A program made the position numbers and the translations under genes. Positions 10,321-50,873 of a stretch of DNA of 64,000 nt are shown here, one piece after another. The notes under the pieces were generated by a model. That model saw only the letters and a list, made by a program, of their open reading frames with translations. It was not told the DNA's origin and did not search any database. This DNA is from Krischvirus LF73P4. The stretch lies in the sequence record OZ035795.1. One strand, written 5' to 3'. Position 1 is the first letter of the stretch; every line of letters begins with the position of its first letter.

Positions 10321-10917
10321 TTATTTGGTAGTACCGTCAATAAAATGTTTACGGCACACAGAAACATATTTATCCTCTGCACCAACTTCGATTTGAGCAC
10401 CATCGCGAATAACATTACCCTCTTTATCTACACGAAGGACCATTGTTGCTTTCTTGCCACAATGACAAATACCCTTCATTTCGACCAGTTTATCAGCAAA
10501 TGCCATTAATGCCGCAGATCCTTCAAATAGATTGCCCTGAAAGTCAGTGCGAAGGCCATAGCACAGTACAGGGATATTAGCATCATCAACAAGCGCACAC
10601 AAGCCTAAAACATGCTCTTTAGTCATAAATTGGGCTTCATCTACAAATACTGCATCTGGACGCCATCGATCCGGTCTACGCTTACCTAACGATTCACGAT
10701 AAACCAAATCGAAAAGATCATCCGATTTAGTGAAGGTGATCGCTGGGGCACTTAGGCCAATTCGGGAAACGACTTCACTTTCTGAATCTCGATTATCAAT
10801 CGCTGGCTTAAGAATTAATACTCGCATATCACGTTCGGTATAGTTATAAGCACTTTGTAACAGAGAAGTTGATTTGCCAGCGTTCATAGATGCATAGTAG
10901 AAATATAATTGCGCCAT
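10321..10917 (-). CDS. tdk: thymidine kinase
   Basis: MAQLYFYYASMNAGKST P-loop, LCYGLRTDF and VSVCRKH segments closely match E. coli Tdk as recalled. Confidence 0.95.
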   Translation of the reverse strand: MAQLYFYYASMNAGKSTSLLQSAYNYTERDMRVLILKPAIDNRDSESEVVSRIGLSAPAITFTKSDDLFDLVYRESLGKRRPDRWRPDAVFVDEAQFMTKEHVLGLCALVDDANIPVLCYGLRTDFQGNLFEGSAALMAFADKLVEMKGICHCGKKATMVLRVDKEGNVIRDGAQIEVGAEDKYVSVCRKHFIDGTTK

Positions 10918-11210
10918 TAATTAATCTCCAAAAATCCAACAAGGCCTAAACCGATATAAGTCCAGATACCAATGAAAAAGATGTTAATGCTCATGGCAAG
11001 GATAAACCCTTTCAGAGTTTTGGGATACCCGACCCAATATTCCCGACCATCTTCTAACCGGATCAACTTATTGCCTTGCGAGTCCATATCAACTACAACA
11101 TGTTTATTTCGAGATTGCAATAGATATTGTTTTACAATCTCTACACCCGCCATAATAACAATAACGAAAATAAAAGTCCACACAACAAGATTAATGATAG
11201 TCTCAAGCAT
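10917..11210 (-). CDS. hypothetical membrane protein (97 aa)
   Basis: two hydrophobic segments; SD GGAGGTGATAGAAA-ATG; stop overlaps tdk start. Confidence 0.55.
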   Translation of the reverse strand: MLETIINLVVWTFIFVIVIMAGVEIVKQYLLQSRNKHVVVDMDSQGNKLIRLEDGREYWVGYPKTLKGFILAMSINIFFIGIWTYIGLGLVGFLEIN

Positions 11211-11418
11211 TTTCTATCACCTCCACCCAATCAGGTGTTTCCTGAAAGACTCCTTCACCTTCATGATGGTCGCAACCTTTATTGCTACAGTACATCCACC
11301 AATCCCACATTCCCCACGGTAAACGCTGCATATCGTCGTTACAGCAAGTGAAGATGATAGGCCAACCACATCTACCACATCGGCAGTTTTCCTTCATGTG
11401 TGCGCTATTAGGCTTCAT
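11203..11418 (-). CDS. hypothetical Cys-rich protein (start adjusted)
   Basis: CRCGRCGW ... CC ... C..H.H cysteine cluster; ORF track 11203..11457. Confidence 0.45.
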   Translation of the reverse strand: MKPNSAHMKENCRCGRCGWPIIFTCCNDDMQRLPWGMWDWWMYCSNKGCDHHEGEGVFQETPDWVEVIENA

Positions 11419-11863
11419 ATTCAACCACCACAATATTGATATCCGGCGTAAAATCATTAATAATTTCTTCTACGCATTCCCACTCAAGACCGCCAATCCC
11501 ACAACCAATTTTAGGAATATAGAACGGCTTAACAGTACCTTCAAATGCGGAGTTAAGTTGTTCGAATCCACGGATGATAGCGGAATATTCAGCATTTGGT
11601 CCTGGACGGAATTGCGTATAAAGATTAATACCCATCCAGTTATAACCATTAACGGTATGATGCCAAACATTAAACTCGCCTAGCTTACTCGCCGTTCCTC
11701 TCGGTGTCTTTTTGTCAGTAGCCAATGCTTGCGGGAACTCTTTCGCGATCTTCGCAGCAATACCAGCACCCATAGTATGAAAACAATTACAACCATGAAT
11801 TAAATGACCGTTTCCTTGTTTAAACAGGGCGATGAGATCGCCCTTTACAGTATCAATAATCAT
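11408..11863 (-). CDS. macro-domain protein (ADP-ribose binding/processing)
   Basis: HGCNCFHTMGAGIAAKI and IGCGIGGL motifs typical of macro domains; SD2 context. Confidence 0.75.
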   Translation of the reverse strand: MIIDTVKGDLIALFKQGNGHLIHGCNCFHTMGAGIAAKIAKEFPQALATDKKTPRGTASKLGEFNVWHHTVNGYNWMGINLYTQFRPGPNAEYSAIIRGFEQLNSAFEGTVKPFYIPKIGCGIGGLEWECVEEIINDFTPDINIVVVEYEA

Positions 11864-11878
11864 AATATAAACCTCTCA

Positions 11879-12238
11879 TTAGTCACGGGAAGACAACCCA
11901 GCCATAAAACGGCTTAACAGTGTGTCGCGATAAGCAAAGCATAATTGCTTATCAGGGGCAGTATCACAAAGGTTGCGTTTTGTTTTAGCAAAGCTGGCAA
12001 TACTCAGATCCCACGCTCGATTTTTTCGTTTTTCATCTCGACCTTGTTTGTATGCTTCATCAAGTTCGAGCGCGATAAAATCACTACACATGTTATCATC
12101 ATCACAGAAAGTTTTAATGATCTTTTTGTTGATCTCAAATCCTTTGTATTCGAACTTTGGATAAGGGCGCTCATTACTAGCAAGCGCACCAGCCGAGAAC
12201 ATCATAGCAATCATAGCAATTATTGTCAACTTTTTCAT
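11879..12238 (-). CDS. hypothetical secreted/periplasmic protein (119 aa)
   Basis: signal-peptide-like N-terminus MKKLTIIAMIAMMFSAGALA; several Cys. Confidence 0.55.
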   Translation of the reverse strand: MKKLTIIAMIAMMFSAGALASNERPYPKFEYKGFEINKKIIKTFCDDDNMCSDFIALELDEAYKQGRDEKRKNRAWDLSIASFAKTKRNLCDTAPDKQLCFAYRDTLLSRFMAGLSSRD

Positions 12239-12245
12239 ATATTCC

Positions 12246-12836
12246 TCAATAGCGTTTAGTCTTAAGAATGCCTTTACTCTTTAGATGGTTAGCCTTTTTT
12301 AGTACATCATCAGCATAACCTAACCCGGCTTTATAGTTCCATCCAGCATTGTAAGAAGCTAGCGCGAGTCGGATATTACCGTTTCGAACATCCAGCCAGT
12401 ATGCTAACTCATCCATCGCGTAGAATGCAGAAACCTCGCGATTCATGATAAAGTTGATAGTCTGGCGATCACTCATTTTAACACCGCGCTTTGCATTTTT
12501 CGCTTTCACCGTTTTAAGGTAATTTTGAAATAATCCATAAGCATGATGATTTTTCTTTGGTGCTAAGTTTGCACCCGCGCTTGATTCTTGCCATGCGATA
12601 CCCGCCAGGATGTGACCTAAACCCTTTCCGTTATAGCGAATATTCGGATGGTCCTTTTTCAACTTACCGCTTTTCTCGAATTGCTCGCCGTATTGATAGG
12701 CGAAATGTAAATTATCTAGTTGGTGTGCTGTAAAGTTGTCTATCGGCGCTTTTTTGATCGGTGCGCTAGTCGATGCGTGTGTAGCACCAACGGCTAGTGA
12801 CAGACTCAATACTATCGCTTTTAGAACTTTTAACAT
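12246..12836 (-). CDS. secreted lytic transglycosylase (SLT-domain protein)
   Basis: signal peptide; AWQESSAG, YGLFQ and ASYNAG motifs of the SLT catalytic domain. Confidence 0.75.
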   Translation of the reverse strand: MLKVLKAIVLSLSLAVGATHASTSAPIKKAPIDNFTAHQLDNLHFAYQYGEQFEKSGKLKKDHPNIRYNGKGLGHILAGIAWQESSAGANLAPKKNHHAYGLFQNYLKTVKAKNAKRGVKMSDRQTINFIMNREVSAFYAMDELAYWLDVRNGNIRLALASYNAGWNYKAGLGYADDVLKKANHLKSKGILKTKRY

Positions 12837-47029: not shown

Positions 47030-47536
47030 ATGTTGTCACAAACTTACATGCAGATCGCCTATCTGATCGCAAAGAACTCTAAATGTGTTTCGTGGAAGGT
47101 AGGCGCACTGATCGAAAAAGACGGGCGAATCATTTCTACTGGATTTAACGGAACTCCAGCAGGGCAAGTAAATTGTAGCTGTCATGCACATAAAAACGGT
47201 TGGCTGGATGATGACGGCAAAATGATCCCAGAAAAACGACCAGAGCATAGTGCATGGTCACAGAAAAACGAGATCCATGCTGAATTAAATGCTATTTTGT
47301 TTGCTGCCCGTAGCGGTGTATCGATTGAAGGCGCTAGTATGTGGTGTACTGCTTCACCGTGTCCAGATTGCGCTAAAGCAATTGCAAACAGTGGTATTAA
47401 ACATCTATACTATTGCGACACATATGATCGAAATGGTGGGCGTGATTGGGCTGATATTCTGAATAATGCAGATATTACGATCACGCGTATTCCAAAAGCA
47501 TTATTGACTGATTTGAAGGGTATTGATAATGACTGA
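47030..47536 (+). CDS. cd: dCMP deaminase
   Basis: zinc-binding HAELNAI and PCPDCAKAI motifs of cytidine/dCMP deaminases. Confidence 0.85.
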   Translation: MLSQTYMQIAYLIAKNSKCVSWKVGALIEKDGRIISTGFNGTPAGQVNCSCHAHKNGWLDDDGKMIPEKRPEHSAWSQKNEIHAELNAILFAARSGVSIEGASMWCTASPCPDCAKAIANSGIKHLYYCDTYDRNGGRDWADILNNADITITRIPKALLTDLKGIDND

Positions 47537-47843
47537 ACAAGTTGATAATATCGCACTTCGTGAAGCACTAAAGAAAATGTTTTCGGTCGGTACTCACTCT
47601 TTGCAGTTTACTAAGAAAGATGGTACTGTCCGTGAGATGATCGCCACGCGAGATCCGGCACTGATGCCGTTTGAAACATACGAAAAGTGGTTAGTTCCGA
47701 ATGTTGAAAAACCGCGTAAAGAATCAGAAACATCTTTGCCAGTATATGAAATTACAGTTGAAGGTTTCCGTAGTTTTGGGCTTGATAGTCTGATTAATGT
47801 AGATGGGCTGACTCCAGCGCAGATCGTCGAAATTTATAAATAA
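47523..47843 (+). CDS. hypothetical protein (106 aa)
   Basis: ORF track; overlaps end of cd. Confidence 0.5.
   Translation: MIMTEQVDNIALREALKKMFSVGTHSLQFTKKDGTVREMIATRDPALMPFETYEKWLVPNVEKPRKESETSLPVYEITVEGFRSFGLDSLINVDGLTPAQIVEIYK
47835..47842 (+). promoter_or_regulatory. T4-type late promoter motif TATAAATA
   Basis: exact TATAAATA about 43 nt upstream of the gp31-like start. Confidence 0.4.
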
Positions 47844-47884: not shown

Positions 47885-48208
47885 ATGACCGTTAAAACTC
47901 CTAAAGCACTTGGTGATTATGTAATTATCGAAGCTAAAGCAGAAAGCGCAGGGACCGAAGTAAAAAGCTCTATGGGGATCATTATTGAGCAAAAGCGCAC
48001 TATGGGTGAGATTCCGCTGGTAGGTAAGATTATTGATATTGGCGAGACGGTAGATAAAGAATTGCTGGGTAAAACTGTTTTACTGCCACATGGAAAGATG
48101 AATAAAGTTCCTCATCCAGACGTTATTAACGGCGTTAAGAAGGAAGAAGAGATCGACCTGAAATGGACTGTAACGCACAAACAGAATATTGTGGTAGTTT
48201 ACGGTTAA
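47885..48208 (+). CDS. 31: co-chaperonin (GroES-like, T4 gp31-like)
   Basis: LGDYVIIEAKAESAGTEVKSSMGIIIE ... NKVPHPDVI resemble T4 gp31; position next to cd. Confidence 0.7.
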   Translation: MTVKTPKALGDYVIIEAKAESAGTEVKSSMGIIIEQKRTMGEIPLVGKIIDIGETVDKELLGKTVLLPHGKMNKVPHPDVINGVKKEEEIDLKWTVTHKQNIVVVYG

Positions 48209-48219
48209 TGATTTTAAAC

Positions 48220-48248
48220 GGCGGGAAATAATCCCGCCTATATTTTGG
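48220..48248 (+). terminator. terminator-like hairpin (GGCGGGA-AATAA-TCCCGCC)
   Basis: hairpin followed by T-rich TATATTTTGG. Confidence 0.5.
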
Positions 48249-48290: not shown

Positions 48291-48455
48291 ATGAAAACTA
48301 TGAATGTAAACATCCACGAAATCCATACCGAAGTATTCACCGAAGAAGACCAGTTTGGTGTATGGGTAAATCCTCATTCGATTACTATCGATATTCCTAA
48401 TGACGATTATGATCCGTTCTCTCTGATTAGCGAGATTAGTTTCAATGACTTCTGA
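48291..48455 (+). CDS. hypothetical protein (54 aa); not in ORF track
   Basis: ATG 48291 after AAGGAATTTTATT; acidic. Confidence 0.4.
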   Translation: MKTMNVNIHEIHTEVFTEEDQFGVWVNPHSITIDIPNDDYDPFSLISEISFNDF

Positions 48456-48924
48456 AATTGATATCTATGCGGGTGGACCTTATCCATCGGGTGAATTGAG
48501 CAATTTCAATAAAAGACCATTCCGTCTATTTGGTTGCGATATTAACAGCACAGAAGGATTTTTACAGGGGCTAAGATTTAAGAACCCTCAGAGACAAAGA
48601 GAAATCTTTTTGATGCACGGTGGCAAAGCAAAAAGAACCGGAAGAACTGAAAAGATTGAGAATCACATGTTATATTTTCAGGGTCGCCCGATTCATCGAA
48701 TGAGTGAGCATTATTACAGACTGGTACATCTGGCATTTGTTACGATGGCACGGAATAACCCAGAATTTTGTAAAGCATTACTCGCTACCGGAAATAAGAA
48801 ATTGCGTCATAGCATAGGTGGAACTGATCCGTTAAAGACTATATTGACTGAATCGGAATTTTGTAGTATCCTCAATGATATTCGTGAACGTTTAACAAAA
48901 CGAGGTGAAAATGTCAATTCTTAA
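48445..48924 (+). CDS. NADAR-domain protein (YbiA-like, ADP-ribose processing)
   Basis: GELSNFNKRPF, STEGFLQGLRF and LLATGNKKL segments match NADAR family hallmarks. Confidence 0.65.
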   Translation: MTSEIDIYAGGPYPSGELSNFNKRPFRLFGCDINSTEGFLQGLRFKNPQRQREIFLMHGGKAKRTGRTEKIENHMLYFQGRPIHRMSEHYYRLVHLAFVTMARNNPEFCKALLATGNKKLRHSIGGTDPLKTILTESEFCSILNDIRERLTKRGENVNS

Positions 48925-50407
48925 TATCATTAATCAGCTTGCAGCGACCGACAAAACATCGCTGAAAGAAAAGATCCTGAAAGAATCCGCAAGCAATGAA
49001 ACTCTGAAAGAATGCTTTTATCTGGCATATTGCAAACAGGTTACGTTTGGCGTAAAGAAATACGATAAACCATCTCGCTATTCGTCTGTATTGTCTTTAT
49101 CCGGTGCATTGCAGGTCTTTAAAAATAAACTTGCCACGCGTCAAGTAACTGGTAACGCAGCATTACAGCTAGTTACCGATACTCTGACTTGCTTGTCAGA
49201 AGATGATGCTAAAGTTGCAATGATGGTCCTGAATCGTGATCTGGAATGTGGTTGTTCCGCTACTACTGCAAACAAGGTATGGAAGAAACTGATCCCCCAG
49301 CAGCCGTGCCACCTTGCATCGTCATGTTCTGATAAGACTATTGCTAATATCAAGTATCCGGCGTATGCACAACTTAAAAGCGATGGCGCTCGTGGTATGG
49401 CTGATATTGACGGGGAAACATTAGCAATCTATACCCGCTCAGGTAATACCTATCAAGGACTTGATGATTTGTTTGCGGTTTTAGAGCGTCTACGAGGCCG
49501 TGGAATTGTTCTAGATGGCGAATTGGTATATATGCCTACCCTTTCGCAAACACCAGCGCAGAACTTCGTTGAAAGCGTTTATGATGGTACTCTGTCATGG
49601 ATATTTGAAGAAGAGGAAATGCCATTAACGCCAGTAGCGGAAGCAGTGAAAGAATCCGTTGTTGCAGATCGTCAGACCGGAAATGGTATCCTCAACAAAT
49701 CACTTAAAGGAACTATTCCAAAAGAAGAAGCCCAATGTATTGTTTATACTGTCTGGGATGTTATCGACCGTGATGTGTATTACGGAAATGAGAAAGCAAC
49801 GAAGCAATATAAAGATCGATTCGAAGAACTAAAACAGATTGTTGAAGAACTTAACGATCCTCGTGTTCAGATAATCGAAAACACTGTAGTTAACAATATA
49901 GATGAAGCTCGCGAAGTATATCATCGCTATGTAAACATGGGCTTAGAAGGTATTATCCTTAAAAATTTACATGGTGTATTTGAAGATCGCCGTAGTAAAG
50001 ATCAGGTTAAATTTAAAGAAGTGATTGACTTCGACGCGGAAATTGTTGATGTATATCCGCATAGTAAAGACCCCAATAAGGTAGGCGGTTTTACTGTCCG
50101 TAGTGCGTGCGGACGAATGATGACTAACACCGGATCGGGATTGACCGACACCACAACCGAAAAAGGCGATGATGGTATTGAACGTGTGATTCCGTTTGAC
50201 CGTCGAAATGAACTTGACCGAGAAATGTTATGGGCTGACCGTCATAACCTGATTGGAAAAGTTATTGAGATGACATGCAACGGGTATATCCGCAGCAAAT
50301 CACGTAAAGAAGATGAACCGGAGTTCTCTTTATTTCTCCCAATCATCAAACGTATTCGCTACGACAAGACCACTGCAAATACAGTAAAAGAGGTATTCGA
50401 TGTGTGA
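48911..50407 (+). CDS. 30: ATP-dependent DNA ligase (T4 gp30-like)
   Basis: N-terminus and KYPAYAQLKSDGAR (KxDG), EGIILKN, C-terminal IRYDKT match T4 DNA ligase; start adjusted to ATG 48911. Confidence 0.9.
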   Translation: MSILNIINQLAATDKTSLKEKILKESASNETLKECFYLAYCKQVTFGVKKYDKPSRYSSVLSLSGALQVFKNKLATRQVTGNAALQLVTDTLTCLSEDDAKVAMMVLNRDLECGCSATTANKVWKKLIPQQPCHLASSCSDKTIANIKYPAYAQLKSDGARGMADIDGETLAIYTRSGNTYQGLDDLFAVLERLRGRGIVLDGELVYMPTLSQTPAQNFVESVYDGTLSWIFEEEEMPLTPVAEAVKESVVADRQTGNGILNKSLKGTIPKEEAQCIVYTVWDVIDRDVYYGNEKATKQYKDRFEELKQIVEELNDPRVQIIENTVVNNIDEAREVYHRYVNMGLEGIILKNLHGVFEDRRSKDQVKFKEVIDFDAEIVDVYPHSKDPNKVGGFTVRSACGRMMTNTGSGLTDTTTEKGDDGIERVIPFDRRNELDREMLWADRHNLIGKVIEMTCNGYIRSKSRKEDEPEFSLFLPIIKRIRYDKTTANTVKEVFDV

Positions 50408-50873
50408 TAATGAAGGGGCGAAAGCCCCTAAACCTAAAAAATTGTCAAAGAAAGAGCAACGCCAGATCCTGAAAATGAAATATGGTGGACGTTGTGCCTA
50501 TTGTGGCGAGGAACTAGGGGATCGCTGGCACGCAGACCACATCAAACCAGTATTGCGACGCTCAAAGGTAGTCTATGATGAAAATGGACGAATTGCCCGT
50601 AATGATGATGGATCGTGGAAGTATAAGGTTGTAGGAATGCATAAACCGGAACATGATATACTTGATAACATGAATCCGGCGTGTGTGCAATGCAATCTTT
50701 ATAAAAGCTGTATGGGCTTAGAATACTGGCGTAAGTGTATACGCGAGAACTTCCAGAAGTACATTCAGCGCAATATGGGATTGCGAGCGGCTAAACGCTT
50801 TGGCTTGCTGTCAATTCATGACCAGCCAGTAGAATTTTATTTCGAAAAGTACGAGCGCGAAAATAAGGAGTAA
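50400..50873 (+). CDS. HNH endonuclease
   Basis: CAYCGEELGDRWHADHIKP ... NMNPACVQCN HNH motif. Confidence 0.7.
   Translation: MCDNEGAKAPKPKKLSKKEQRQILKMKYGGRCAYCGEELGDRWHADHIKPVLRRSKVVYDENGRIARNDDGSWKYKVVGMHKPEHDILDNMNPACVQCNLYKSCMGLEYWRKCIRENFQKYIQRNMGLRAAKRFGLLSIHDQPVEFYFEKYERENKE

Follow-up and report, generated by a model that had tools for sequence, protein, structure and literature searches.

The window, the whole 64,000-nt stretch of Krischvirus LF73P4 DNA analyzed here (sequence record OZ035795.1), carries an ATG-started open reading frame of 159 aa between gene 31 and the DNA ligase gene 30; we refer to it as gene 30.3 or adfN. Its features and those of its neighbours are collected in Table 1. 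The local gene order is pseT, cd.2, cd, 31.1, 31, 31.-1, 30.3, 30, and it is identical in phage Phi1 and in a more distant metagenomic relative (L005). The start of adfN overlaps the stop of gp31.-1 by 11 nt, an arrangement suggestive of translational coupling, and its stop overlaps the start of gene 30 by 14 nt. For the ligase we consider ATG 48911, which is preceded by a GAGGTG Shine-Dalgarno sequence, the likely start rather than GTG 48905. The stem-loop behind gene 31 looks like a terminator; a consensus scan found no sigma-70-like promoter between it and gp31.-1/adfN, and the number of sigma-70-like sites in the gp31-adfN region was not above shuffled expectation.

Over 1.6 kb, the region shares 98.7% identity with phage RB49 and 98–99% with nearly all of the other 58 matching records (RB49-like, Krischvirus), and the encoded protein is 100% identical to RB49 gp30.3. 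T4 shows the order 31 ... 30.3 ... 30, so that 30.3 occupies the orthologous slot in both phages; of the 11 genes which T4 carries between 31 and 30 it is the only one in common with the Krischvirus lineage. Two neighbours deserve a remark of their own. The HNH ORF directly 3′ of the ligase gene overlaps the end of that gene by 8 nt and is probably a homing endonuclease; its counterpart in Phi1, ORF212, is annotated as ‘hypothetical’. The gene for gp31.1 is labelled ‘tail fiber protein’ in some phage records, which looks like a mis-annotation.

Table 1. Features of the adfN region and of the macrodomain locus in the window
Feature	Position	Strand	Basis
gp31.1	47523..47843	+	WYL_2 (Sm-like SH3 barrel) domain, E 1.1e-09
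Gene 31 (GroES-like head-assembly co-chaperonin), upstream synteny anchor	47885..48208	+	phrog_931 head morphogenesis, E 8.5e-37; weak Cpn10 match; RB49 and Phi1 annotation
Stem-loop, GC-rich, followed by a T-rich tail; directly 3′ of gene 31	48220..48238	+	sequence inspection
gp31.-1, acidic 54-aa ORF between gene 31 and adfN	48291..48455	+	ORF listing; phrog_15277, E 3.7e-42
Gene 30.3 / adfN orthologue, predicted guanine-ADP-ribose DNA glycohydrolase	48445..48924	+	ORF listing; NADAR fold (predicted), 159 aa; key residues E37, R44, H122, C-terminal helix 136–155
Gene 30 (ATP-dependent DNA ligase), downstream synteny anchor	48911..50407	+	PF01068, E 2.8e-22; phrog_114, E 1.4e-141; Phi1 annotation
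HNH endonuclease ORF	50400..50873	+	PF01844; phrog_2118, E 2.7e-54
Tk.4 / adfM orthologue (by sequence), 151-aa DarG-like macrodomain, between tk and vs	11408..11863	−	PF01661, 28.3 bits (cut-off 22)

A first-pass annotation, made from the sequence alone, had described the ORF as a NADAR (YbiA-like) protein on the basis of three hallmark segments. These segments are present, GELSNFNKRPF as residues 16–26, STEGFLQGLRF as residues 35–45 and LLATGNKKL as residues 112–120, and they coincide with the most conserved columns of the family. Residue counts were taken from about 165 aligned domains: the window protein, T4 gp30.3, the first-round homologues, and the 150 best representatives of the clusters formed at 50% identity among 1,665 family hits. 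In this alignment L18, S19, N20, F26, E37, Q41, L112 and T115 show little or no variation.

The protein matches the Pfam family PF08010 (Phage_30_3) with 132.5 bits against a cut-off of 36 (E 1.2e-38, model positions 2–138 of 138), and phrog_652 with E 2.5e-45. However, the profile search against PF08719 (NADAR) that had been proposed as a check was, taken strictly, not passed: the score of 15.5 bits (E 0.021) stayed below the gathering score of 35.1. PF08719 was matched at E ≤ 0.01 by nine of 35 diverse gp30.3-family members, the best with E 3.4e-07. Searched against PDB sequences, profiles of the gp30.3 family found YbiA (2b3w) on top, weakly (E 0.12 and 0.029) and through the common motif SNF...E..Q..K-F; 8bau and 8bat were not reached in this search, and no PADLOC model matched the protein. 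The predicted fold resembles only the three solved NADARs and has the YbiA-like arrangement of an alpha-helical core with two small flanking beta-sheets. As the sequence is by itself insufficient for NADAR membership, the case rests on this fold and on the transitive Pfam matches. Taken together, PF08010, the nine family members reaching PF08719 and the predicted fold give a solid, partly model-based assignment to the phage gp30.3 branch of the NADAR superfamily, and the earlier description of the protein as a NADAR can be retained. The classification of gp30.3 as a phage NADAR branch, in which His replaces the Glu of YbiA and the Asp of DarG1, had already been published (PMC11125620, PMC11543638). 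Domains of the gp30.3 type also occur outside phages (representatives among P0073, P0110, P0086, P0114 and P0014). Some of these representatives appear to be fused to BspA-type leucine-rich repeats, to Lgt (prolipoprotein diacylglyceryl transferase) or to an FtsW/RodA-like membrane domain, possibly as a gene-calling artefact, and others carry tandem copies of which the second is without the catalytic Glu.

T4 gp30.3 and the window protein share 38% identity (E 2e-30), and in the BLASTP register residue n of the window protein corresponds to T4 residue n−1 over the first 60 residues. E37 aligns with T4 E36, so that the catalytic Glu for the distal ribose (PnNADAR E43, C7 E88) is present; Glu occupies this column in 162 of the 167 family domains aligned. 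H122, which corresponds to T4 H123, directly follows strand 119–121 in the predicted model, and its column is His in 158 of the 162 domains without a gap at this place. This is the phage-type state of the last strand's charged residue, which is Glu in YbiA, Asp in BC4488/DarG1 and His in phage gp30.3 (PMC11125620). The C-terminal helix, without which the RB69 allele is inactive, is intact in the model, and the alignment extends to the last T4 residue. The conserved Lys that contacts pyrophosphate/adenine (PnNADAR K50, C7 K95, T4 K43) is not found: position 44 is Arg, encoded by AGA, with retention of the basic charge. The column holds Lys in 159 and Arg in six of the about 165 domains. Three of the six Arg cases belong to this lineage (the window, P0001 and P0002), two are degenerate second copies in which the catalytic Glu is missing, and the sixth comes from an unrelated protein (P0144). 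The AGA codon is also kept in L005, whose protein is 69% identical.

The gene is maintained under strong purifying selection. Between the window and Phi1 we counted five synonymous and no non-synonymous differences, the comparison with L005 yields a dN/dS of ∼0.10, and in all 59 matching Krischvirus-like records the protein is at least 95% identical; one of these records, AJ550428, is a 1.5-kb fragment of RB49 only. With the PF08010 match, these substitution patterns place the coding signal of the ORF above chance. On a larger scale, tblastn found adfN in 1509 of 50,697 phage records, and the T4-type ligase was found in 1421 (E ≤ 1e-50). The counts for adfN and ligase are 598 and 601 for phages of Escherichia and 272 and 276 for those of Klebsiella, and both searches gave equal counts for Aeromonas, Acinetobacter, Yersinia and Citrobacter. 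Gene 30.3 is thus close to universal in T4-like phages, and its spread over many host genera suggests that the selective pressure could exceed the one DarTG1 system tested. According to the first-pass annotation, a gene both universally conserved and essential would have spoken against a role in countering host defence. Near-universality was indeed observed but essentiality was not: in a HIDEN-SEQ transposon screen T4 adfN was dispensable on E. coli K-12 and essential in the presence of DarTG1 (bioRxiv 10.1101/2025.11.20.689424). As the T4 gene is essential only with DarTG1, the anti-defence interpretation stands despite the wide distribution.

The T4 orthologue is well characterized. On DNA in vitro, T4 gp30.3 cleaves off ADP-ribose linked to guanine but not that linked to thymine (Cihlova et al. 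2024, Toxins; PMC11125620), which bears out the suggested link to removal of ADP-ribose from guanine. Johannesman, Carlson and LeRoux named the protein AdfN (preprint PMC11257639; Nat Commun 2025, PMC11825919). Deletion of adfN renders T2 and T4 ∼10^4-fold sensitive to DarTG1, and T4 adfN is both required and sufficient for overcoming this system (PMC11825919). AdfN supplied in trans rescues RB69, whose frameshifted allele is without the last 15 residues (PMC11257639, PMC11825919). The exchanges E36A and K43A abolish function, and AdfN neither binds DarT1 nor counters DarTG2 (PMC11825919). Full effectiveness of T4 AdfN is seen only during T-even infection, and a phage co-factor may be needed (PMC11825919).

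We propose, with a probability of about 0.8, that the ORF is the Krischvirus (RB49-type) adfN and encodes a NADAR enzyme that removes the guanine-ADP-ribose of DarT1 from phage DNA. Our own analysis covers the ORF, its family and predicted fold, the conserved residues, the synteny and the purifying selection; enzymatic activity and counter-defence phenotype were demonstrated for the T4 orthologue (PMC11125620, PMC11825919), and T2 also resists DarTG1 (PMC11825919). By analogy, the 38%-identical orthologue with Arg44 would have the job of T4 AdfN. In the proposed mechanism, a host toxin of the DarT1 type would place ADP-ribose on guanine, at its N2 amino group, in phage DNA that is being replicated. 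AdfN would bind the ADP-ribose with Arg44 on the pyrophosphate, in the usual place of Lys, and with Glu37 and His122 flanking the distal ribose; hydrolysis of the ribose-guanine bond would leave unmodified DNA on which replication could go on. AdfN would act as an orphan antitoxin, on the damage and not on the toxin, and the macrodomain protein Tk.4/AdfM would do the same for thymine-linked ADP-ribose from DarT2.

The exchange of Lys for Arg at residue 44 is the sole feature of the window's gene that goes beyond published work, and it gives rise to an alternative: fold and chemistry might be kept while specificity is shifted or weakened, leaving Krischvirus AdfN either a poor anti-DarT1 factor in vivo or an enzyme retuned to another ADP-ribosylated substrate or guanine-targeting transferase, maybe together with gp31.-1. 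Arg at this position is rare in the family and the same AGA codon is found in L005. NADARs that are equal in vitro differ sharply in in vivo protection (PMC11125620), and the K95R variant engineered in the DarG1-NADAR of E. coli C7 retains hydrolysis of guanine-ADP-ribose in vitro but fails to rescue cells from DarT1 (Schuller et al. 2023, PMC11543638). The latter result can be read in both directions, as the variant loses in vivo rescue but is catalytically active. The small ORF gp31.-1 was found in 59 phage records, all of them Krischvirus-like, and L005 has a copy with 41% identity in the equivalent position; it stands beside both Arg44-bearing adfN lineages (the window and L005) and is absent beside a Lys-bearing relative in L006. 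However, this co-occurrence comprises two lineages only, the positive charge is preserved by Arg, every other active-site residue is conserved and the gene is under strong purifying selection. We also know of no alternative substrate for phage-type NADARs. Altogether we regard a shift in specificity as unlikely. The related idea that Arg44 and the overlapping gp31.-1 mark a re-specialised AdfN, with another substrate, another kinetic regime or a dedicated partner, appears to us quite unlikely; within this idea, gp31.-1 could even represent the phage co-factor that T4 AdfN may require. In T4 the start of 30.3 is likewise overlapped, by gp30.4, but we found no similarity between this protein and gp31.-1 and rejected the two as counterparts.

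Another possibility is that adfN serves as a housekeeping or self-regulatory eraser, which would undo ADP-ribosylation by phage transferases of the Alt, ModA or ModB type, or else act on ADP-ribose or on metabolites of the riboflavin pathway, a role suggested for YbiA. That practically all T4-like phages have the gene, irrespective of host, would agree with such a function, and YbiA-family NADARs have been tied to an N-glycosidase activity on riboflavin intermediates (cited in PMC11125620). However, T4 adfN is needed only where DarTG1 is present (10.1101/2025.11.20.689424; PMC11825919), and the phage clade, with His for the diagnostic Glu of YbiA, has been reported as nearest to DarT1-linked NADARs (PMC11125620, PMC11825919). 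The annotation of phage Phi1 shows no alt-like gene at a distance of up to 9 kb from 30.3. The T4 transferases, moreover, modify protein arginine and RNA, and to our knowledge neither is a demonstrated NADAR substrate. We therefore judge a housekeeping function very unlikely. That adfN is a decaying or non-functional remnant, as the natural loss-of-function allele of RB69 (PMC11257639) and the non-conserved catalytic Lys might insinuate, is hardly credible for an ORF that is full length including the C-terminal helix missing from the RB69 allele, that is at least 95% identical in protein among the 59 records, that differs from Phi1 by synonymous substitutions only and from L005 with a dN/dS of 0.10, and that was the only one of T4's 11 intervening genes to be kept in common.

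The reading of the ORF as a DarT1-countering adfN is accompanied by a second module elsewhere in the window. The macrodomain ORF (Table 1) is 43% identical to T4 Tk.4 (E 1e-45) and matches DarG models of PADLOC (E 1.9e-15) and NCBIfam (antitoxin_DarG, E 2.3e-14). JSE is annotated in the order tk ... tk.4, vs, vs.1, and the slot of the macrodomain ORF is that of tk.4 in both JSE and T4. By sequence and position we assign the ORF as the orthologue of AdfM (T4 Tk.4). In T4 the tk.4 macrodomain was identified as AdfM, an anti-DarTG2 factor (bioRxiv 10.1101/2025.11.20.689424). The earlier claim of two ADP-ribose-erasing modules therefore agrees with the published pair AdfN and AdfM of T4, with the addition that the macrodomain gene lies on the minus strand.

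The tk.4 allele of the window shows 79.9% nucleotide and 82% protein identity to that of JSE with a dS of 0.75, whereas the flanking tk, vs and vs.1 (flanks 10321..12836) are 98–100% identical (98.6–100%) with dS ≤ 0.1. The two tk.4 products do not differ in their first 47 residues or in a conserved stretch close to the C-terminus, and the window protein reaches at most 83.9% identity to any of the 50,697 phage records. Recombination thus appears to have exchanged an internal patch of the gene. The first-pass annotation had seen ADP-ribosylation as a contested battleground for this phage; the recombinant allele lends mild support to this idea at the macrodomain locus, but adfN is invariant within the genus. 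As a separate observation, the tk-tk.4 interval (window ∼11200..11460) is ∼194 nt shorter than in other Krischvirus genomes (compared with JSE, L003 1204..1613): a 64-aa ORF of JSE (L003 1419..1613) is absent from the window, and the neighbouring ORF has 84 aa versus 72 aa in JSE.

Both T4 erasers of DNA ADP-ribosylation described in the literature hence have intact orthologues in an RB49-type phage: AdfN, which acts on guanine and counters DarTG1, and the anti-DarTG2 factor AdfM, for which thymine is presumed. The biology of both modules is already known from the T4 orthologues, so the first reading was right but not new; in the papers searched we found no link between Krischvirus and DarTG. 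The assignment can improve the annotation of the 59 Krischvirus-like records, in which the gene is now labelled ‘hypothetical’ or ‘gp30.3 conserved hypothetical protein’. One new point is raised, namely whether a natural Lys-to-Arg exchange at the phosphate-binding residue alters in vivo efficiency or specificity.

In comparison with known systems, the window protein differs from YbiA (PDB 2B3W) and the Phytophthora NADAR (PDB 8BAU), both members of PF08719, in that it scores below the threshold of this family and has His in place of the YbiA-family Glu; YbiA itself gave no in vivo protection against DarT1, and a metabolic role has been proposed for it (PMC11125620). Unlike DarG1, the NADAR antitoxin of DarTG1 (E. 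coli C7; Geobacter lovleyi, PDB 8BAT), it is without a basic N-terminal extension, has His and not Asp in the last strand and no adjoining DarT toxin gene; identity in the structural alignment is 11%, and PADLOC gives no match. Likewise, the macrodomain ORF is without the DarT-binding C-terminal domain of the DarG of DarTG2. The T4 locus, with its 11 genes between 31 and 30, differs from the window, where just gp31.-1 stands between 31 and 30.3. T4 also differs from Krischvirus in DNA modification: RB49 contains canonical cytosine (PMC4041780), and Krischvirus genomes are without the hydroxymethylcytosine pathway (PMC4041780, PMC13390438). A preference of AdfN for hydroxymethylated DNA, to which an AdfN in Krischvirus would have been a surprising exception, was proposed in the 2024 preprint and dropped in the final paper, which proposed a T-even co-factor instead (PMC11825919). 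We rejected a dependence on hydroxymethylcytosine, as AdfN still protects T4-GT7, whose DNA carries no modifications at all (PMC11825919); because this protection does not need DNA modifications, an AdfN in canonical-cytosine Krischvirus presents no conflict. Compared with T4 AdfN itself, the window protein has Arg44 for the catalytic Lys43 and 159 instead of 152 aa, with seven extra residues at the C-terminus. It shares with T4 AdfN the PF08010 domain, the slot between genes 31 and 30, the residue pairs E37/E36 and H122/H123, the C-terminal helix and the build as a single domain of ∼150 aa that dispenses with the N-terminal extension of DarG1.
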